Of a stretch of DNA of 64,000 nt, positions 49,201 to 63,971 are shown piece by piece (position 1 is the first letter of the stretch; each line of letters starts with the position of its first letter). The position numbers and the translations under genes were made by a program. Under the pieces are notes generated by a model, which searched no databases, was not told where the DNA came from, and worked only from the letters and a program-made list of their open reading frames with translations. Source of the stretch: Dehalococcoidia bacterium (GTDB taxonomy: Bacteria > Chloroflexota > Dehalococcoidia > Plut-88900); NCBI GenBank assembly GCA_965197645.1, contig OZ240219.1:2080001-2144000 (forward strand), written 5' to 3'.

Positions 49201-49707
49201 CTACAGAAAGATGCTGATGTTCCTGGCGTCAAGTATCGTCTGGTCCAGAATGATGGTCCTTCGGGCGATCTTCAGCTGGCCATCGACCCGCCTGAGAGTG
49301 TCATGCCGGGTGCCGACGTAGATGTCCGTGTCAGTGTCCATGCGGGTCCTGTAGACCAGGAAGTTGCAATGGACGTCAAACTCGGAGCTTCCATTGGCCC
49401 CTTTTATCCGGATGTTGGAGACCAGGTGTCGCGTTCTGGAGGGTGGAGTCTCGGCCCAAGCGGTCCCGGTATCCAACCGATTGACGCGCATGCGCAGCGT
49501 TTCCTTGGTGTCCTCGAAAAAGCCCGTTTCGCCAGGCTTGGACAGCTCTTCGGCCACCTCTCTGCTTATCAGAGTCTCTCGCACCGGCATCCAGTAGTGT
49601 AGGTCGTCGGTGAACAGGTCGAGCCACTGGTGAAACCGTCGTTCATCCAGAAGCTCCGCCTCCTCGTACAGGAGGTCTTCGACCTCACTGCGCAGGTCAT
49701 CCGACAT
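49201..49707 (-). CDS. Aromatic ring-hydroxylating dioxygenase beta subunit
   Basis: [39 protein letters not shown]. Confidence 0.9.
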
Positions 49708-51025
49708 GCTGGGGTACCCCCACGTTGCGAGTACGAGGGGCAATGCTTATCTCGTTCCAGGACTCGGCGGCCATCATCTCCGCCCAGCGCCCGTACAGAC
49801 CCCGCTGGTTGATCTCGCTTAAGAAGTCTCCCACCCTGCCTGGAAGGTCCGGGTGGGACGTTTCGTGACCCAACCCCATCTGGAAGTTGGCGGGTATGCG
49901 CCTGGAAACTGCGCCCCGTCCCGAGCGGGTGACCTGCATCCAGTTGTCCATGTCGTCCTGCTCCCACGTACCGGCGGCGGAGAAGGTCTGGGTATTGTAG
50001 ATCCGGGTGTCCTCCTTGACCTCGGGCGGGGCGTCCCTGTCGACGTAAGTCCACGCCCAGATCTCCATCCTCTCCGGCCCGCGAGGATGCCAAACCCGCA
50101 TGGTGCTGTTCGACAGGAAGGAGAAGTTGGGAAAGACCGTAGCGTGGAAGCCGCCAATCCTGCGACCTCGGAGAGCACCCAGGCGCGCTTCCGCCTCGGC
50201 GGCGGTCGCTTCCATGTATTCCACGGTGCTTGGGGCTACGTCTCCGCTGCCAAACTCGTCCTCGCCCTCCGGGATCAACGGTATCCCGATGCCGTGCCCA
50301 TTACCCGGCGAGACCTGATAACCGGGATATTGGAACCCTCCGGTGGGATCGCCGAAATCCCAGCCCACCTGGATAGCGGACTGATGGGAGGCCCAAGCGT
50401 GGTACATATCCCCGATGAAGTTCTCCGCAGATACCTTCCAGTTGGACTCCAGCACCCACCGGTGGGCGCCTCCTATCAGCTCGGTGCCGGCGTCTCGACG
50501 ATCGAACACGATGTCCAGGTACCAGGCCATGTCCCCCAGGTACTCCAGCAACGATGGCGCCCCTGCATCGAAGGTGGCGAAGATCAATCCCTTGTAGGTG
50601 TCAAGCTGGGCAACGGGTACAAGGCCCCATTCCGACAGGTCCAACTCCTCGAAGTAGGACTCCTTCCAGCTGGGCACCGAGACCAGCTTGCCCTGGTTGT
50701 TGTAGACCCAGCCGTGGAAGGCGCAGGTGAAGTACTTGGCATTGCCCCGGTCGGCGCGGCAGACCCGGTTGCCCCGGTGCCGGCACATGTTGATGAAGGC
50801 CCCCAGCTTTCCATCGCCGTCACGGGAGACGATGACCGGGTCCTCGCCCATGTAGGTAGTGATGAAATCGCCGGGGTTGGGGAGCTGGCTCTCGTGGCCG
50901 ATGAATAGCCAGCAACGGGCGAATATCCGCTCCAGCTCTAGGCGGTAGATATCCGGGTCGACGAATATGCTGCGGTCGATCAGACCACGCTCTGTGTCCA
51001 CCAGCTTACTTACGTCGATGCTCAT
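49697..51025 (-). CDS. Rieske ring-hydroxylating dioxygenase alpha subunit (copy 1)
   Basis: CRHRG..CAFHGW Rieske motif; [11 protein letters not shown]; EQDD. Confidence 0.92.
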
Positions 51026-51161
51026 CGTATCCAGCCTTCCTGCTACTCCCACCTGGTGCATATGAGATACGGCGCGAACTGCTTGATGATCGGGTAGCTG
51101 TGAGACTACTTCAGATTGAGTTACTCGTCAATTCAGGGTCCGGTGATAGCGGGTCAGTCGA

Positions 51162-52481
51162 TCATCCGACCTGCGGGGCAACCTCCAACTCTCGAGCGGC
51201 GGTCCTCACGTCTCTCCAGGATTCGGCGGTCATCAGTTCCGTCCAGCGGTCGTACATGGAGCGCTGGTTGATATCGCTGTAGAACTCACCTATCCTGCCC
51301 CGAAGGTCGGGATGCGTTGTCTCGTGTCCCAGCCCCATCTGGTAGTTGGCGAGTGTCCGTCGGGAAACGGCGCCCCGTCCCGAGCGGGCAACCTGCATCC
51401 AGTTGTCCATGTCGTCCTGCTCCCAGGTCCCGGCGGTTGAGAAAGTCTGGGTTACGTTGATCCGTTGAGCTTCCTTGACCTCGGCGGGAGCGGCCTTATC
51501 GACGAAAATCCATGCCCAGATCTCCATCTTCCCCGGGCCGCGAGGGTGCCATATGCGCAGCGTGCCGTTGGGAAGGAAGGATAGGTTGGGAAACACGGTG
51601 CCGTGATTGGGCCGGACCTTGCGGGCTCTGACCCGACCCAGCCGCTGCTCCACCTCATCGATGATGGCCTTGGCATACTCCCGGGTGTCGGGATAGTTGC
51701 TGCGAGACCAGACCTCTTCACCCTCCAGGAAGTAGAAGATCCCCAGGCCGTGTCCATTGCCCGGCGAGACCTGGTATCCCTGGAAGATGGGGCCTTCGGT
51801 CTCGTCGCCGGAGTCCCAGCCGGCCTGGATAGCGGACTGATGCGACGGGTAAGCGTGGTACATGTCCCCAACGAAGTTCTCCGCCGATACCTTCCAGTTG
51901 GACTCCAGCACCCACCGGTGGGCGCCTCCTATCAGCTCCACGCCGCCCTCTCGACGGTCGAACATCATGTCGAGGTACCAGGCCATGTCCCCCAGGTACT
52001 CCAGCAGCGAGGGCGCCTCCGCATCGAAGGTGGCGAAGATCAGCCCTTTATAGGTGTCCAGCTGGGCCACGTGTACAAGGCCCCATTCCGACAGGTCCAA
52101 CTCCTCGAAATACGACTCCTTCCAGCTGGGCACCGAGACCAGGTTCCCCTGGTTGTTGTAGACCCAGCCGTGGAAGGCGCAGGTGAAGTACTTGGCATTG
52201 CCCCGGTCGGCACGGCAGACGCGGTTGCCCCGGTGCCGGCACATGTTGATGAAGGCCCCCAGCTTCCCCTCGCCGTCACGGGAGACGATAACCGGGTCCT
52301 CGCCCATGTAGGTAGTGATGAAATCGCCGGGGTTGGGGAGCTGGCTCTCGTGGCCGATGAATAGCCAGCAGCGGGCGAATATCCGCTCCAGCTCCAGGTC
52401 ATATATCTCCCGGTCGACGAATATGCTGCGGTCGATCAGACCACGCTCTGTGTCCACCAGCTTACTTACGTCGATACTCAT
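51162..52481 (-). CDS. Rieske ring-hydroxylating dioxygenase alpha subunit (copy 2)
   Basis: Same motifs; N-terminal half nearly identical to copy 1. Confidence 0.92.
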   Translation of the reverse strand: MSIDVSKLVDTERGLIDRSIFVDREIYDLELERIFARCWLFIGHESQLPNPGDFITTYMGEDPVIVSRDGEGKLGAFINMCRHRGNRVCRADRGNAKYFTCAFHGWVYNNQGNLVSVPSWKESYFEELDLSEWGLVHVAQLDTYKGLIFATFDAEAPSLLEYLGDMAWYLDMMFDRREGGVELIGGAHRWVLESNWKVSAENFVGDMYHAYPSHQSAIQAGWDSGDETEGPIFQGYQVSPGNGHGLGIFYFLEGEEVWSRSNYPDTREYAKAIIDEVEQRLGRVRARKVRPNHGTVFPNLSFLPNGTLRIWHPRGPGKMEIWAWIFVDKAAPAEVKEAQRINVTQTFSTAGTWEQDDMDNWMQVARSGRGAVSRRTLANYQMGLGHETTHPDLRGRIGEFYSDINQRSMYDRWTELMTAESWRDVRTAARELEVAPQVG

Positions 52482-52587
52482 TTTCCAAAGCCCTCCCAGT
52501 CCGGTCTCGTTCCATGACAGGCCAAGCTCACCGTGCTCTAAGTTTAGCGATGACGCCACATCAATTCAATGCGCTTCCCCCTTGGGT

Positions 52588-54698: not shown

Positions 54699-55562
54699 AT
54701 GTACATCCCCCTAGATCAACCGCTAAACCTGGTACACACCTTTGAATGCGGCCAGGCTTTCCGGTGGAAACGGGTGGGGGAGTGGTACTACGGCTTGGCC
54801 TTCGGCAACATCTTCGCCATTCGCCAGGGCCTGCTGGGCCTTGAGTTCCGAAGCTACCCCGAACCCGAGGAGGACGTGGCATATCGAATCAAATACTACC
54901 TCCGCCTGGACGACGACCTGCCCGCCATCTACGACCGGATTTCCATCGATGAACGGATGAGCTCGGCTATCGCCCAGTTCTCCGGCCTTCGTCTCATTCG
55001 ACAGGACCCGTGGGAGTGCCTCCTCTCCTTCATCTGCTCGATCAACTCCAACATAGCCCGCATCAGCGCGTCGGTTGAGAGCCTCAGCGAGAAGCTGGGC
55101 GAGCGCCTGGAGATGGATGATCAGGTCATCTACACCTTCCCCACCCCCCGGCAGGTGGCGGGCCTTGGGGAAATGGGTCTCCGGCTCCTAGGCATGGGGT
55201 TCCGGGCCAAGTACATGGCGGAGACTGCCCGAATCCTCACCGAGGACGGATACGATCTGGACGGCCTGCGGGAGGCCTCCTACCAGGACGCCAAAGCGGA
55301 GCTGATGACCCTGCCGGGCGTGGGCGACAAGGTAGCGGACTGCGTGCTCCTCTTCTCCCTGGACAAGCTCGAAGCCTTCCCCGTCGACCGCTGGGTCCGG
55401 CGCGCTGTCGAGGACTGGTACCTCAACGGCGAGTCCCGCTCCTACGATGCCATCCGCCAGTGGTCCCTGGATACCTTCGGGCACTACGGCGGATACGCCC
55501 AGCAGTACATGTTCCACCGGAGGCGGCTGGACGGCCTGGCACCTTCGGAAGACGCCGGTTAA
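54699..55562 (+). CDS. 8-oxoguanine DNA glycosylase (OGG1-like, HhH-GPD)
   Basis: ECGQAFRW, QDPWECLLSFICS, LPGVGDKVADC, FPVD, GYAQQYMF. Confidence 0.9.
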   Translation: MYIPLDQPLNLVHTFECGQAFRWKRVGEWYYGLAFGNIFAIRQGLLGLEFRSYPEPEEDVAYRIKYYLRLDDDLPAIYDRISIDERMSSAIAQFSGLRLIRQDPWECLLSFICSINSNIARISASVESLSEKLGERLEMDDQVIYTFPTPRQVAGLGEMGLRLLGMGFRAKYMAETARILTEDGYDLDGLREASYQDAKAELMTLPGVGDKVADCVLLFSLDKLEAFPVDRWVRRAVEDWYLNGESRSYDAIRQWSLDTFGHYGGYAQQYMFHRRRLDGLAPSEDAG

Positions 55563-55577
55563 ACCGTAGACTCATCG

Positions 55578-56321
55578 ATGCTCGCCGTCTCCACCAGGCT
55601 CCCCGATACCAGGTCCGGCAATCCGCCGGTGGTCCTTGTCCACGGCGCCGCCAACTCGGCCATCGTGTGGAGGCACTGGCAGGAGGAGCTGGCCGAACGC
55701 GGCTGGGCATCCTACGCCCTGGACTTGAGGGGCCACGGGAGAAGCGCGGTCATCGACCTTTCGACCACGACGATGGAGGATTACGCCACCGATATACAAA
55801 GAGTGACGACCATGTTGGACAGACCTCCCGTCGTCCTGGGCTGGAGCATGGGCGGCCTGGTCGCCATGCTGTACGCCTCGTGCGGGAAGGCCGCTGCCTG
55901 TGTGGCCATCGCGCCCAGTGTCCCGGCCCGCAGGACCGATCCCTCGGTCAGGTTGCGAGCGGGCGAGTACGGCGCTGCCGCCTATCGCATCACTAAACGC
56001 GGCCCCGAAGACCAGCCCGCCATGCCAGATTTAGACCTGGATGAGCGCAAGCTCGCCCTGGACTCCCTCAGCAACGAGTCTCGCTTCGCTCGGGACCAGA
56101 GGAAGGCCGGAATAGTCATCGAATCGATACCCTGTCCTCTGCTCCTGGTCACCGGCACCGAGGACACCGACTGGCCCGAGGAGATGTTCCGGGACCTGTG
56201 GCTCGAGCCGGACCGGTACAGCGTGCAGGGCGCATCCCATTGGGGGCTGGTGTTGAATCGCCGGGTCCTGCCTTCCACGGTCGAAAAGGTCACGGCCTGG
56301 GTATCAGAGAGTCTGCGGTAA
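55578..56321 (+). CDS. Alpha/beta hydrolase (tandem paralog 1)
   Basis: LVHG, DLRGHG, GWSMGG, GASHWG. Confidence 0.85.
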   Translation: MLAVSTRLPDTRSGNPPVVLVHGAANSAIVWRHWQEELAERGWASYALDLRGHGRSAVIDLSTTTMEDYATDIQRVTTMLDRPPVVLGWSMGGLVAMLYASCGKAAACVAIAPSVPARRTDPSVRLRAGEYGAAAYRITKRGPEDQPAMPDLDLDERKLALDSLSNESRFARDQRKAGIVIESIPCPLLLVTGTEDTDWPEEMFRDLWLEPDRYSVQGASHWGLVLNRRVLPSTVEKVTAWVSESLR

Positions 56322-57068
56322 ATGCCCGTGCTCGCCGTATCCACCAGACTTTCGGCAGCCGACTCCCCGAACCCTCCCATCGTCCTTGTCCCCGGCTCTT
56401 TCGCCTCCGCCCTGATCTGGACCTATTGGCAGGACGAGCTGGCCAGGCTGGGCTGGATATCCCACGCCATCGATCTACGGGGCCACGGCCTTAGCACACC
56501 GATGGACCTATCGAAAACGTCGGTGGCCGATTACGTCTCCGACGTCCGTCGCGTCGTCGAGACCCTGGCCAGGCCACCGGTGATGATGGGCTGGAGCATG
56601 GGAGGCCTGCTATCGATGATGTACTCCAGCACCTATGGCGCCGCGGCGTGCATAGGCTTGGCGCCGACGCCGCCGGCCAACAGGCCGAACACCACTTTCG
56701 TCATCGAGGACGGCGAGTATCCCGCCTACATACCCGGAATGACCGACCGGCCTGTCGAAGACCAACCGTCTCTACCCGACCTGGACCTGGAAGAGAGGCA
56801 GACGGCCCTAGATGCGATGTCCAGGGAGTCCCGGTATGCCATGGGGGAGAGGATGGCCGGCGTGGTGGTGAAGTCGGTCCCCTGCCCTCTGCTGATCGCC
56901 ACGGGCTCCGAGGATGTGACCTGGCCCAAAGACGCTGTCGTAGCCGGATGGCTCAACCCAGATCGCCACGTTATCGAAGGAGCGTCCCACTGGGGCTTAC
57001 CCCTGAACCGGTCGGCCATTTCCGCCGCCGCGCCGGTCATATCCCGGTGGATCCTGGAGAACCTCTAG
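56322..57068 (+). CDS. Alpha/beta hydrolase (tandem paralog 2)
   Basis: DLRGHG, GWSMGG, GASHWG; abuts paralog 1. Confidence 0.85.
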   Translation: MPVLAVSTRLSAADSPNPPIVLVPGSFASALIWTYWQDELARLGWISHAIDLRGHGLSTPMDLSKTSVADYVSDVRRVVETLARPPVMMGWSMGGLLSMMYSSTYGAAACIGLAPTPPANRPNTTFVIEDGEYPAYIPGMTDRPVEDQPSLPDLDLEERQTALDAMSRESRYAMGERMAGVVVKSVPCPLLIATGSEDVTWPKDAVVAGWLNPDRHVIEGASHWGLPLNRSAISAAAPVISRWILENL

Positions 57069-58309
57069 CCCACCAACTTTTTGACCAGGGCCACCTCATC
57101 CTCTCTTGTGACGGTTTCCCCATCCAGCCGGGCACGGCGAAGCTCCTTCAACATCTTTCCCAACTCCGGCCCACGAGGTACGCCCAGGTCCTGCAGGTCT
57201 CGACCGTTGAGGTGGGGAGCGATCGCTCTCAGCTCGGTTGTATAGAGCGCAATGCGCTCGGCCACCAGGGGAGACCCCGAGGCCACCCGGAACGCCGTCA
57301 ACGCATCCTCCGATATTTTATCCAGCACATCAGCCAACCGGCTTCGCTTTAGATCGAGCATCTCCAGCTCTTGCCGCCGGCTCTTCAGCGTCATCGCGTC
57401 GGCTACGCCTTGGACCTGGTCTTTGGTGAACCGGTACGTGTGAAGGAACCGCCGGCTGTCTTCGTCCGAGCAACGGTACAGCAGAATGGACAGGTACACG
57501 ACGATGGAGGGACGCCCCCCGGTCGACCTGGCCTCTCGGTACCTCTCCGCTAGCCACCCGTCGGCCTTCAGCGCCCCGTCCAGCCTTCCCAGCACCCCCA
57601 ACTCGTCTGCCCTGATCAGAGCCAGCTCCGGCTGCTCCTCTCGCAGTACCAGCTCCAGCTCGTGACGGTTCCGGTCTACGCCCACCGATCCTATGGAAGG
57701 TAGGGCGCTCCTCAGAAGCCCTTCCGTTTTCGGTTCCAATCGAAATCCCAGCCGCTGTTCATAGCGAATGGCCCGCATGATCCGGGTCGGGTCGTCGGTG
57801 AAGCTGGCATCATGGAGGACCCTGATCAGCCCCTCGTTCAGATCTCCCCTGCCGTTGTAGGGGTCCAGGAGCCGGCCCGCCTCGGGTGGGCTGAGCTGCA
57901 GAGCGATGGCGTTTACGGTGAAGTCCCGGCGGGCCATATCGGTATCGATGGAGCCCGGCCTGACCAGTGGCAGGATCCCGGGTCTTGAGTACTCTTCCCA
58001 CCGGGCCGTCGTCAGATCTACGGAGATGTCGTCTTTCGTGTAGGTGGCCGTACCGAACCTATCGTGGGTGACGACCCGCCCGCCGTCAGCTTCGGCTAGG
58101 CCCTGGGCCACCGCCAGTGCGTCGCCCTCCACGGCCAGGTCCAGGTCACCACTTTCCCGCTCCATTAGCAGGTCCCGCACCCGGCCGCCCACCAGGTAGA
58201 GAGAATGGCCCTGCTTCGAGCATATCTCTCCCGCCAGGCGCACGACCTCCCAAAGTTCGGGGGACAGAGACCTTTGGAGCGCATCGATGGGACCGGTGTT
58301 AGGAGACAA
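57065..58309 (-). CDS. cca: Class II tRNA nucleotidyltransferase (CCA/A-adding family)
   Basis: LVGGRVRD, DLD, RRDFTVNA, SFTDDPTRIMRAIRY. Confidence 0.85.
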   Translation of the reverse strand: MSPNTGPIDALQRSLSPELWEVVRLAGEICSKQGHSLYLVGGRVRDLLMERESGDLDLAVEGDALAVAQGLAEADGGRVVTHDRFGTATYTKDDISVDLTTARWEEYSRPGILPLVRPGSIDTDMARRDFTVNAIALQLSPPEAGRLLDPYNGRGDLNEGLIRVLHDASFTDDPTRIMRAIRYEQRLGFRLEPKTEGLLRSALPSIGSVGVDRNRHELELVLREEQPELALIRADELGVLGRLDGALKADGWLAERYREARSTGGRPSIVVYLSILLYRCSDEDSRRFLHTYRFTKDQVQGVADAMTLKSRRQELEMLDLKRSRLADVLDKISEDALTAFRVASGSPLVAERIALYTTELRAIAPHLNGRDLQDLGVPRGPELGKMLKELRRARLDGETVTREDEVALVKKLVG

Positions 58310-58440
58310 AGGATCGCACCATGGTAAACAAGAGGTATAGAAAGGCCATTATAGCATCCGGCTTTCCGCACCTCGTTGGTTTGCTTTTGGGCACTCCGGT
58401 GCTAAAATGGGTATATTCCACAAAAGAAAGGCGGAAGCAT

Positions 58441-59061
58441 ATGGTCGAAAAGATAGATATGACCGTTTACTACGACTACCTCTGACCCTACGTCCGCGTT
58501 GCAGCAGTCTGGCTGCAAGACGTCAAGGAAGCCTACGAAGGCGAGATGAACATCACGTGGAAGAACTTCCCGTTGGAGCAGGTCAACAGCAAGGAAGGCG
58601 AAGACTGGAAGCTGTGGGAGCAGCCCGAGTCTTACGCCAGCCGCGGCCTCCTGGCCCTGCGTGCAGGGGAAGCCGCCAAGAAGCAGGGCATGGATGCCTT
58701 CAACAAGTTCCACGTCATCCTCCTGAACGCTCGCCACGTGGACCGCAAAGCCATCGACAACATGGACATCCTCGTGGATGCCGCCACCAAGGCGGGGCTG
58801 GACGTCGATAGGTTCAAAGAGGACATCAAGGACCCCGAGGCCCTGAAGACCATCGCCGCCGACTATGAGGAGGCGAAGAGCAAGCACGGCGTGTTCGGCG
58901 TGCCAACCATCGTCTCAGAGGACGGCAACGCCGCCTTCGTCAAGATGATGCCGCCTCCGGCTTCAGACAAGGCCCTGGAAGTATTCGAAGGGGTCTTCGA
59001 CGTCGTGTCCACGAAACCTGACGTGCTGGAGATCAAGCGACCCGAACCTCCCGAGGCCTAG
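58441..59061 (+). CDS. DsbA/FrnE-like thioredoxin-fold selenoprotein (Sec at codon 15, TGA 58483-58485)
   Basis: MVEKIDMTVYYDYL(U)PYVRVAAVW is in frame with ORF 58546-59061, which ends in the GVFGVPT cis-Pro motif; hairpin follows the TGA. Confidence 0.85.
58491..58522 (+). promoter_or_regulatory. Putative bacterial SECIS hairpin
   Basis: TTGCAGC-AGTCTG-GCTGCAA stem-loop starting 13 nt after the UGA, extended by CGTC/GACG. Confidence 0.7.
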
Positions 59062-59081: not shown

Positions 59082-59780
59082 ATGCCCGACCTGGATGAGC
59101 TTCAGCGGATCATCGGGGTCGAATTTGCCGACCCGTCGCTTCTGAGCAAGGCTCTAACTCACAGCTCTTTTCTGAACGAGAATCCAGCACCGGGCCTGGA
59201 ACACAACGAACGGCTGGAGTTCCTGGGTGACGCCGTCATTGGCTACGTCGTCGCCCAGGAGCTTTACCTCCGCTTCCCGCACCTCTCCGAAGGTGAACTC
59301 ACCGAGCTTCGTGCCGGCATGGTCCGAGCCGAGTCCCTCGCTGAAATCGCCCTCGACTTGCACCTCGGCGAGTACCTGACCCTCGGTCGGGGTGAGGAGC
59401 AGGGGGGCGGCAGGGACCGTACCGGCAACCTGGGGAGAGCCCTGGAGGCATTGGTCGGCGCTCTTCTCCTCGATCAGGGAATGGAGACGACCCGCTCCTT
59501 CCTACTCAAACAGCTGGAAAGTCGCCTGGGAAGCGCCGTCAAAGAGGGCCCGAAGAAAGACTACAAGTCCCAGCTCCAGGAGTACACCCAGCTCCGATGG
59601 AAGATTCAACCCGACTACGTGACCGTCGAGGATCCGTCGCCCGATAACACTCCGCAGTTCTCCGCCGAGGTCATGGTACAAGGCGAGGTGATGGGCCGCG
59701 GTACCGGTCCCACCAAGCGCACCGCCCAGCGACACGCCGCCGAGGAGGCGCTCCAATGCCTCCAACTACGAGATACATGA
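59082..59780 (+). CDS. rnc: Ribonuclease III
   Basis: ALTHSS, NERLEFLGDA signature, dsRBD DYKSQLQE..AQRHAA. Confidence 0.95.
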   Translation: MPDLDELQRIIGVEFADPSLLSKALTHSSFLNENPAPGLEHNERLEFLGDAVIGYVVAQELYLRFPHLSEGELTELRAGMVRAESLAEIALDLHLGEYLTLGRGEEQGGGRDRTGNLGRALEALVGALLLDQGMETTRSFLLKQLESRLGSAVKEGPKKDYKSQLQEYTQLRWKIQPDYVTVEDPSPDNTPQFSAEVMVQGEVMGRGTGPTKRTAQRHAAEEALQCLQLRDT

Positions 59781-61535: not shown

Positions 61536-63971
61536 ATGCTTGACTTCTTCACCTGGTGGATATCCCTGGAGGCCGCGGGTCTTATCGCCCTGCCTCTGGC
61601 CTTCCGCTTGTTCTCGGGCCTCCCCGATAGGGGCTACGCTTTCGCCAAGCCCCTGGGCCTCCTGCTGACCGGGTACCTGTTCTGGCTAGTAGGGCTCACT
61701 GGATTTCTATCCAATAGCCGTATGACCATCGGGCTGGTGGTGATTGCCATTGGAGTGGTTTCCCTCTACCTGTTGCGCCACCACTGGCCCGACTTGGGGA
61801 AGTTCCTTTGGCGAGAAAGGTGGACCGTTCTTGCCGTCGAGGTCCTCTTCTTCGGGGCATTCGCCTTGTGGGCACTGGTCCGGTCCTACGATAGCGCCAT
61901 CCTCCACACCGAGCAGCCCATGGATTTCGCCTTCCTCAACGCCTCCATCCTGTCTCAGAACTTCCCTCCCAACGATCCCTGGCTCAGCGGAAACTCCATC
62001 AGCTACTACTACTTCGGATACCTGATAAGCGGAGCCTTGGCCAAACTCACGGGCGTTGCCGGGAGCGTCGCCTACAATCTGGCCCTCGCCCTGGTCTTCG
62101 CTCTTACTGCTACGGCCGCCTTCGGCCTGGTGTACAACCTTGTCCGTATGCACCGCGGTGATGGCCGAATGGGCCAGGCAACGCCTATAGCTCTGGGCCT
62201 TCTCGGCTCCCTGTTCGTCGTGGGAATCGGCAACCTCCAGGGCTTCGTCGAGAGCATCCGGACCTTGGGCCTTGGCACCGACGGCCTCTGGGACTGGTTT
62301 GGCGTACCGGGCTTCAGCGGCGTCCCCTCGGACGCATCGTTGTACCCCGACCAGTACTGGTGGTGGTTCCGGTCCACCCGTGTGATCGAGGCTACTGCGG
62401 GTGACGGCGTCCGGGCCATCACCGAGTTCCCCAGCTTCAGCTTCATCCTCGGCGACCTCCACCCTCACGTGATGTCTCTTCCCTTTGTGCTCCTAGTGCT
62501 CGGCCTCGGACTCCAGAGCCTGACGTCTAAGGAGATCGTAGATTGGCAATGGGCCGTAAAACACCCGTTACGGGTGCTGATCGTCGCCGTCGCGCTGGGC
62601 GCTCTGGCCTTTCTAAACAGCTGGGATCTGCCCACGGGAGCGGCCGTGATTCTCGGCCTCACACTGCTCAATAACTATCGATTGTGGGATGGGTTGAGCT
62701 GGGAGCGACTCCGCGACTGGGCCATATTCGCGATGGCGCTGGGCATCCTGGTGCTGCTTCTGTACCTGCCTTTCTACCTCGGCACCAGGCCCCAGCCGCT
62801 GTTCCCCTGGGTCCTACCCGTCGAAGACGTTAACACACGGTACATCCACTATCTGCTCGTACTTGGGTTGCTCCTGTTCTTCTGCATCTCCTTCCTAGTC
62901 GTCCGCACGTGGCCTATATGGAAGAGGGCCGGGTTCTCCTGGCCTCTGGCCGGCGCGTCCGTGGGCACCACCCTCCTCCCATTCACCGCGTGGATCGTAT
63001 CGGTCCTCCTCCTGGGAGCCGTCCAAGGCGATATAGCAGACAGCCTGACCGACGTAGGCTGGCGGTTTGTAATGCTCCTGCCTCTGCACGCCGTCATCGC
63101 CGTAGCCCTGTTCTCCCTGCTCCGATCGGCCCGTCCACTAGGCCGGTCTGGGCCCCCGTCCTCGACGAGCCTGCTCTTTGTCCTCGCCCTGGTCCTGACC
63201 GGATTCTCACTCACACTCGGCCCAGAGCTATTCCGCATCGCCGATCTCTTCGGTACCCGGATGAACACCGTCTTCAAGTTTTACTACCAGGCGTGGATCG
63301 TGCTGGCCATCGCCTCCGCCTTCGCCGTGTACTATGTATCGACGAAATGGCGGCGGGACGCCACTTGGCGTAGGATGGGCCTGCTCGGCTGGTCCGGCGT
63401 TGCGGCGGTTCTGGTCGTCGGTTCCGGCCTTTACGTCTATGGCGCTATCGAGAACAAGACCGGAGGCTTCTCTTCGGACCGGAGCCTGGACGGCCTGGCT
63501 TTCGTTGAGCGACGCAGCAGCGCCGAGGCGGAAGCGATGCGATTTCTGGTCTCCGAAGGCGCTCCGGACTCGGTCATCGTAGAGGCCGTAGGAATCACTC
63601 GCGATGGCTCTCCCTCGGGCGACTACCACCGGGGCTTCAACGAAGAAGGCGAACCGTTGAACCTGGAGTATGGTCGGGTGTCCGGTCGCACCGGGCTGCC
63701 CACTTTGCTGGGCTGGGCCGGCCATGAGCACCAGTGGCGAGGCTCCCGCCACGGCTTCAATGAACGGATGAACGACGTAACCGAGATCTACACCGGCTCC
63801 GATGCATCCCTCACGAGGGAACTCCTGGACAAGTACGGCGTTACCTATGTATACGTGGGCAGTATCGAAAGGGCCAGATACGATTCCCTGGACATCGAAA
63901 AGCTGGACCGGATAATGGACAGGGTGTTCGATGAGGGCGGCATAACCATTTTCGGGTACGATGACCAGTGA
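61536..63971 (+). CDS. DUF2298 / Chlor_Arch_YYY polytopic membrane protein (GT-C-like)
   Basis: EQPMDFAF, DPWLSG.SISYYYFGY, ITEFPSFSF..DLHPH, RMNTVFKFY, GLPTLLGW.GHE.QWR. Confidence 0.85.
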   Translation: MLDFFTWWISLEAAGLIALPLAFRLFSGLPDRGYAFAKPLGLLLTGYLFWLVGLTGFLSNSRMTIGLVVIAIGVVSLYLLRHHWPDLGKFLWRERWTVLAVEVLFFGAFALWALVRSYDSAILHTEQPMDFAFLNASILSQNFPPNDPWLSGNSISYYYFGYLISGALAKLTGVAGSVAYNLALALVFALTATAAFGLVYNLVRMHRGDGRMGQATPIALGLLGSLFVVGIGNLQGFVESIRTLGLGTDGLWDWFGVPGFSGVPSDASLYPDQYWWWFRSTRVIEATAGDGVRAITEFPSFSFILGDLHPHVMSLPFVLLVLGLGLQSLTSKEIVDWQWAVKHPLRVLIVAVALGALAFLNSWDLPTGAAVILGLTLLNNYRLWDGLSWERLRDWAIFAMALGILVLLLYLPFYLGTRPQPLFPWVLPVEDVNTRYIHYLLVLGLLLFFCISFLVVRTWPIWKRAGFSWPLAGASVGTTLLPFTAWIVSVLLLGAVQGDIADSLTDVGWRFVMLLPLHAVIAVALFSLLRSARPLGRSGPPSSTSLLFVLALVLTGFSLTLGPELFRIADLFGTRMNTVFKFYYQAWIVLAIASAFAVYYVSTKWRRDATWRRMGLLGWSGVAAVLVVGSGLYVYGAIENKTGGFSSDRSLDGLAFVERRSSAEAEAMRFLVSEGAPDSVIVEAVGITRDGSPSGDYHRGFNEEGEPLNLEYGRVSGRTGLPTLLGWAGHEHQWRGSRHGFNERMNDVTEIYTGSDASLTRELLDKYGVTYVYVGSIERARYDSLDIEKLDRIMDRVFDEGGITIFGYDDQ

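Follow-up and report, generated by a model that had tools for sequence, protein, structure and literature searches.

A predicted DsbA-like selenoprotein and putative cytoplasmic monoselenol reductase encoded upstream of rnc in a Dehalococcoidia lineage

A plain open reading frame call in the window, which is the whole 64,000-nucleotide stretch of Dehalococcoidia DNA analysed here, opens at an ATG at 58546 and gives a product of 171 amino acids. The same frame extends upstream across a TGA to another ATG at 58441. The locus raises the questions of whether this TGA is read as selenocysteine (Sec), what kind of enzyme would result and what this would mean for rnc, the gene of RNase III located next to it. 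The favoured reading, given a probability of roughly 0.6, is a Sec-bearing, cytoplasmic monoselenol reductase of the DR2335 type, which probably heads an rnc operon in one Dehalococcoidia lineage.

Results and Discussion

Reading frame and start site

The following features were assigned:

57065..58309, minus strand: divergent tRNA nucleotidyltransferase gene (CCA/polyA polymerase family, PF01743), in a conserved neighbourhood
58388..58417, plus strand: weak sigma-70-like promoter candidate, 9 of 12 matches, a consensus match only
58427..58435, plus strand: Shine-Dalgarno-like sequence preceding ATG 58441, duplex of -5.5 kcal/mol vs -1.9 kcal/mol at ATG 58546
58441..59061, plus strand: full coding sequence of the predicted DsbA-like (DR2335-like) selenoprotein, 206 amino acids, motif D-Y-L-U-P-Y-V, no Cys
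58483..58485, plus strand: UGA predicted to be read as Sec15, the catalytic residue, beside which helix 16-31 begins; a TGA/TGC/TGT column in related loci
58490..58523, plus strand: predicted bacterial SECIS, upper stem of 7 bp, 6-nt loop and variable lower stem, assigned by bSECIS criteria and comparison
58903..58905, plus strand: Pro155 in a G-V-P-T loop, invariant together with Thr156 in 91 aligned proteins
59082..59780, plus strand: rnc (RNase III), TIGR02191 with 235.6 bits, above cutoff, 20 nt past the selenoprotein stop, no recognisable Shine-Dalgarno sequence

As read from the window sequence, the frame starts with ATG at 58441-58443 and stops with TAG at 59059-59061. It contains one in-frame TGA only, at 58483-58485, which is codon 15 in the context YYDYL-*-PYV. 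The start, the TGA, the call at 58546, the stop and the 20-nt gap to rnc agreed with the preliminary description, and its statement that the protein has no resolving Cys anywhere was correct, the 206-residue read-through product containing zero Cys. With read-through, PF01323 matched residues 8-163 at E 5e-16, compared to 7e-10 for the 171-residue call. An N-terminal leader was absent, the domain beginning at the N-terminus, and the sequence suggests a cytoplasmic location of the selenoprotein.

The start at 58441 was favoured over 58546 because a Shine-Dalgarno-like site precedes the former and none precedes the latter. A Shine-Dalgarno sequence was also present at the upstream start in 43 of 44 rnc-linked copies of the gene. 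The promoter candidate sits within a gap of 131 nt that the selenoprotein gene and the divergent CCA-type gene have in common, and a TG-extended -10-like hexamer was read from the sequence at 58400-58408.

The hairpin downstream of the TGA

The hairpin begins 13 nt past the TGA. Its arms at 58499-58505 and 58512-58518 enclose a loop at 58506-58511, and a lower stem of 5 bp is formed by 58490-58494 paired with 58519-58523. The published bSECIS criteria are a loop of 3-9 nt, a stem of 4-16 bp, a G in loop positions 1-2, a spacing of 16-37 nt and an MFE of -7.5 or below (PMC13188914). All were found here, with a 6-nt loop, a 7-bp stem, a G in loop position 2 with a U after it (58507-58508), a UGA-to-loop spacing of 20 nt and an MFE of -18.2 kcal/mol for 58483-58530 (-15 to -18 kcal/mol over the spans folded). 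The optional N1-N2 pair closing the loop was non-canonical (A-G). The stability of the hairpin by itself was only modest: three short spans gave z-values of -2.0 to -2.4, and a span of 141 nt gave -1.4. Six of the 1611 TGA triplets in the window had a Watson-Crick hairpin of at least 7 bp that lay at SECIS spacing and carried a G in its loop. An Rfam scan of the window returned tRNA-Gly only, with no match to a SECIS model.

Catalytic column and hairpin in relatives

The protein search gave 211 matches, of which 120 were listed, and a genome scan confirmed 257 loci, the best 80 of which were analysed. Within these 80, the catalytic column was occupied by TGA in 63 loci, TGC in 13 and TGT in four, with no other codon. 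The nearest loci of this set (68-73% identical) were Dehalococcoidia or Chloroflexota MAGs, and some of the remoter ones were labelled SAR202. TGA versions in L038, L068 and L078 were labelled Deltaproteobacteria, Proteobacteria and Nitrospinota, which may reflect transfer or mis-binning. A plasmid collection held two Deinococcus matches of the Cys type only.

Among the 120 proteins listed, 76 had Cys at the site, every one as C-P-x-(V/A), and none had CxxC. Another 42 were truncated and began just past the site, including all of the 13 closest. Two (P0095 and P0105) showed W at this column, probably due to the gene caller's choice of genetic code. The UxxV motif, regarded as atypical in the preliminary description, is thus the Sec counterpart of the family norm, and a UxxV family has already been published. 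Following UPY, the 63 TGA loci among the best 80 of 257 had V in 61 cases, A in one and C in one. The single U-P-Y-C (L059:9998-10009) would offer a possible resolving Cys and had a weaker stem. A tandem duplicate of the gene was observed at L070:7595-9162, with TGA and SECIS-type sequence in both copies.

In the alignment, the consensus hairpin had a core of 4 bp that closes a loop of 6 nt. In the best 80 of 257 loci, the core was fully paired in 57 of 63 TGA genes vs 2 of 17 Cys genes, counts that exaggerate independence because the loci are related: in a quick tree with three to four label changes, a single group contains 16 of the 17 Cys genes. The loop G was present in 59/63 TGA and 5/17 Cys genes, and the median core pairing probability was 0.80 vs 0.004. 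The tree was calculated with the catalytic column masked; since its distant outgroups formed long branches, neither a root nor a sequence of Sec gains and losses is proposed. Two contrasts run against lineage: L019 has TGA within the mainly-Cys group and carries the hairpin (p 1.0), and L025 is a Cys gene from Dehalococcoidia in which it is missing (p 0.06).

Codon usage at the stem was biased in the same direction. The Ala codon there was GCA in 47 of 60 cases, compared to 109 of 1109 at other positions of these genes, and the Leu codon was CTG in 59 of 60, compared to 453 of 1038. A covariation score of 0.120 was matched by none of 500 shuffles and lay above all slid controls, with the covariation mostly in two outer pairs that are themselves broken in about 45% of rows. 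Part of the hairpin conservation is at the protein level, because the hairpin overlaps with a conserved helix motif. On comparative grounds, UGA15 marks the catalytic column and the G-U-loop hairpin, as a SECIS, is under joint selection with it.

The preliminary description had proposed a hidden selenoprotein with a SECIS-like 7-bp hairpin and had named Cys or TGA in homologues at this column as a check. The proposal is strongly supported, with TGA in 63, TGY in 17 and neither in none of the best 80 of 257 loci, a hairpin within the published bacterial ranges and its retention together with TGA in the relatives. Judged by these comparisons, the gene almost certainly encodes a selenoprotein.

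Fold and predicted chemistry

A structure model of the full-length protein reached a pLDDT of 96.9, with a first strand at residues 5-11 and residue 15 at the point where helix 16-31 begins. The 171-residue form lacks this strand and the active site. The best fold match was Deinococcus DR2335 (7DK9; Z 25.6, 195 residues aligned with an rmsd of 1.9), which was also the best sequence match (profile E 2e-39). Sec15 aligned with the Cys of 7DK9, a position held by Ser in the mutant 7DKA. Rv2466c followed with Z 19.4 and an rmsd of 3.2 over about 186 residues, and then kappa GST, YjbH and HCCA isomerase at Z 16-18 (HCCA isomerase, Z 16.1). Pro155 presumably represents the cis-Pro position of the thioredoxin fold.

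PF22234 matched with 29.5 bits vs a cutoff of 27. The NF041057 model of the Rcas_1661 (seleno)lipoprotein scored 29.6 bits, below its 190-bit cutoff. Across the 91 members, NF041057 and TIGR02187 were the only NCBIfam matches, both weak, and no NCBIfam model covers the family at cutoff. The protein has UPYV in place of the CxxC of Rv2466c/Mrx2, and it departs from canonical DsbA and FrnE in that it has no Cys and its domain starts from residue 5. The features of DR2335-like single-Cys proteins were all found: the motif C/U-P-x-A/V, no resolving Cys and a structural match over the full length.

PMC8945050 presents DR_2335 as a DsbA-like protein with a single Cys and states that no experimental data had been reported for it. 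A literature search found no paper characterising it, and no activity data were found in the literature for any family member. Rv2466c, a cytosolic reductase dependent on mycothiol, also acts as a nitroreductase (PMC11841060) and removes S-mycothiolation via a monothiol mechanism (PMC6178380). The window protein is accordingly best described as a predicted cytoplasmic thioredoxin-fold enzyme of the DR2335-type, single-Cys DsbA-like family, in which Sec would replace Cys.

SelB binds hairpins of this kind and brings Sec-tRNA to the UGA. In the proposed route, SelB on the SECIS would allow Sec to be inserted at UGA15. The selenolate may then attack a disulfide or an S-thiolated protein, a mixed Se-S adduct would form and an external low-molecular-weight thiol could regenerate the selenolate. 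A single-selenol route recycled by an outside thiol is proposed because the protein has no resolving Cys, and a parallel is drawn to the monothiol mode of Rv2466c/mycoredoxin-2. By this analogy, monoselenol-reductase chemistry is the preferred assignment, with somewhat better than even odds.

As the main alternative, the selenoprotein may be a thiol-cofactor transferase, an isomerase or a small-molecule reductase, perhaps acting on aromatics, as modelled by kappa-class GST, HCCA isomerase and nitroreductase. In the fold comparison, kappa GST with Z 16-18 and HCCA isomerase with Z 16.1 came just under Rv2466c, Rv2466c itself is a mycothiol-dependent nitroreductase (PMC11841060) and two Rieske-type oxygenase-like ORFs occur at 49.7-52.6 kb in the window. 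The conserved neighbours, however, have housekeeping functions (rnc, cca, ftsY, coaE, ispD and glycosylases) and do not form catabolic clusters. In addition, a Cys or Sec nucleophile is retained throughout the family, and kappa GSTs use Ser. An enzyme of this kind has perhaps one chance in five, and disulfide or S-thiolation reduction by the selenol remains the preferred activity.

Gene neighbourhood and linkage to rnc

Among the best 80 of 257 loci, rnc directly followed the gene in 42 of 63 TGA loci and came at a distance of 886 nt in one more. Nineteen TGA loci had no rnc although plenty of sequence was available downstream, and one further locus was too short. None of the 17 Cys loci had rnc as the next gene, four of them being too short to tell. 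The gaps between gene and rnc measured 1-22 nt in 28 of 44 cases and more than 60 nt in nine. No terminator-like site was found between the two genes in the window. The short gaps and the missing terminator-like site make co-transcription likely, and the suggestion to this effect in the preliminary description agrees with the 20-nt gap and the conserved gene order. The sequence therefore indicates that the selenoprotein gene and rnc are probably on one transcript.

All Thermomicrobia-type TGA genes among the best 80 of 257 loci were without rnc. Copies of this type, whether Sec or Cys, have a coaE-cluster gene ahead of them, and the gene behind them often encodes an HhH-GPD glycosylase or an M50 peptidase. 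Since they have other neighbours, the adjacency to rnc tracks lineage and not Sec.

The arrangement suggests that the gene could double as a selenium-sensing leader, in which failed read-through of the UGA uncouples translation and lowers rnc transcription or its coupled translation. This would agree with the distribution of rnc over TGA and Cys loci (42/63 and 0/17, four of the latter too short), with the short gaps and with the missing terminator-like site. A Shine-Dalgarno sequence was found at the first rnc start in 0 of 44 cases and within 30 codons in 13 of 44, compared to 97 of 232 and 132 of 232 for other neighbours, all with start codons called mechanically. A precedent for selenium-dependent, translation-coupled transcription is fdhF of Treponema primitia (PMC3892789). 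However, lipB, ksgA and a PHP gene were as poor in Shine-Dalgarno sequences as rnc, five further genes of the window also had none and nine gaps exceeded 60 nt. Moreover, 19 TGA loci, including all of the Thermomicrobia type, were without rnc, and the rnc-linked lineage yielded no Cys gene as a contrast (best 80 of 257). A selenium-sensing role of the gene is thus improbable. The related prediction that rnc of a large, SAR202-related Dehalococcoidia lineage lacks a ribosome-binding site of its own and depends for its expression on Sec read-through at codon 15 is likewise doubtful on the present sequences. Selenium control of RNase III is only plausible, because the adjacency is bound to one Dehalococcoidia lineage. 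If true, a central enzyme of RNA processing would be controlled by selenium, and the processing of rRNA and mRNA would be tied to the supply of this element. A full-text literature search found no paper connecting rnc with selenoproteins.

Other neighbours were conserved to varying degrees. In the best 80 of 257 loci together with the window region, the tRNA nucleotidyltransferase cluster had 21 members. A coaE-cluster gene lay directly upstream in 25 of the best 80 of 257 loci (12 TGA and 13 Cys, e.g. L016, L019-L024 and L028-L031); Pfam confirmed the identity of two members. Four CoaE-DsbA fusions were detected (P0122, P0128, P0194 and P0172), with P0122 matching L064 at the junction. They are read as a result of adjacency because the linkers retain the original start region; a functional link to CoA was considered as a weak lead, fusion through adjacency being more likely. 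P0016 and P0138 carry a C-terminal fusion to a REase_MTES_1575 domain.

DNA glycosylase genes were found nearby in both lineages, of the OGG type in Dehalococcoidia and as a downstream HhH-GPD (MutY-like) gene in the Thermomicrobia type (examples at 54699-55562 in the window and in L016, L069 and L076). Two tandem, very similar ORFs resembling the large subunit of Rieske ring-hydroxylating oxygenases were read from the translation at 49697-52559. Two similar alpha/beta-hydrolase genes lie in tandem with zero gap at 55578-57068. A Chlor_Arch_YYY (TIGR03662/DUF2298) membrane protein is encoded at 61536-63971 after ftsY, and its cluster comprised 17 members when the loci were taken together with the window region.

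Other readings of the TGA

A sequencing error, a pseudogene lesion or a true start at 58546 would agree with the 171-residue form carried by databases (P0002) and with the missing Sec machinery near the gene. Short motifs of selA, selB and selD had no match in the window or in the 80 locus flanks, and ARAGORN, applied to the window and to 60 of 63 TGA loci, detected no tRNA-Sec. According to the supplement of PMC5029168, Sphaerobacter and Thermomicrobium are Sec-positive and Dehalococcoides is Sec-negative. Against such readings, the same TGA recurs in 63 genomes of the best 80 of 257 loci with intact frames and conserved N-termini, the upstream start has a strong Shine-Dalgarno sequence that 58546 lacks and the short form is devoid of the first strand and active site. 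Genome-wide reassignment of UGA to Trp or Gly, or a suppressor tRNA reading it as Cys, could account for the W in P0095 and P0105, but TGA serves as the stop codon of rnc and of the YYY-domain gene in the window and the catalytic column alternates with Cys codons only, with SECIS co-selected (best 80 of 257 loci).

The window contained 156 read-through candidates, the top 148 of which were scanned for Pfam domains. A clear domain across the TGA was present in this gene only, and no convincing second selenoprotein was found among these 148. A second candidate showed a sub-cutoff zinc-finger match across its TGA, which looks spurious. Error, pseudogene and code reassignment are excluded in practice by the 63 TGA and 17 TGY codons among the best 80 of 257 loci and by the TGA that ends rnc, and each would come as a great surprise.

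Comparison with known systems

Canonical DsbA, FrnE and the GOS families DsbA 1 and DsbA 2 have the DsbA-type thioredoxin fold in common with the window protein. They differ from it by CxxC or UxxC, canonical DsbA is exported and most FrnE proteins carry an additional CxxxxC at the C-terminus. Rv2466c/mycoredoxin-2 (PF22234) shows the same fold over about 186 residues, and its cytosolic location, dependence on a low-molecular-weight thiol and monothiol mode resemble the traits proposed here. However, it has CxxC with a resolving Cys and an identity of about 17-20%. DR2335 is the closest in sequence and fold and has a single catalytic Cys in C-P-Y-A. It differs in having Cys instead of Sec and is 28% identical to the window protein.

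The family itself was predicted in 2008. Zhang and Gladyshev 2008 (PMC2398784) list 'DsbA 3, pfam01323, UxxV' in their Table 2 with five sequences, which are five reads from three samples, and 72 Cys homologues. PF01323, UxxV and the motif D-x-x-U-P-x-V are as in the window protein. The supplementary sequences also have downstream motifs in common with it, and JCVI_READ_1091141065421 of supplementary file 3 was identical in 36 of 59 positions, counted by hand without gaps from D12. Where that paper deals with DsbA 3, it names no host and offers neither a SECIS analysis nor a gene context or a function. A 2026 review (PMC13188914) lists in Table 1 a 'DsbA-like protein form 2' with DxxUP (MDP6049977.1), distinct from the UxxC form 1. 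Matched by motif and Pfam description only (DxxUP and PF01323), it probably belongs to the same family as the window protein. Form 2 carries the label 'crotonase', which has no counterpart in the window protein; the word did not occur in the text or supplements of the paper cited for this form. In the literature as far as accessible, 'UxxV' appeared alongside 'selenoprotein' only in PMC2398784 and PMC13188914, and the latter applies it to TsoY, another protein. The accessible main text on deep-Sep does not mention 'DsbA'.

The window gene is a further member of the family predicted in 2008, which is predicted and not characterised. The present analysis is chiefly a correction of annotation and adds host range, SECIS evidence, DR2335 orthology and the conserved rnc context. 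The enzyme is easy to test, because its compact SECIS has comparative support and the structure of the Cys orthologue DR2335 is solved. A family once seen in five ocean reads is now found to be widespread in Dehalococcoidia and Thermomicrobia, and gene callers regularly cut its genes short (42 of 120 proteins among the matches listed).
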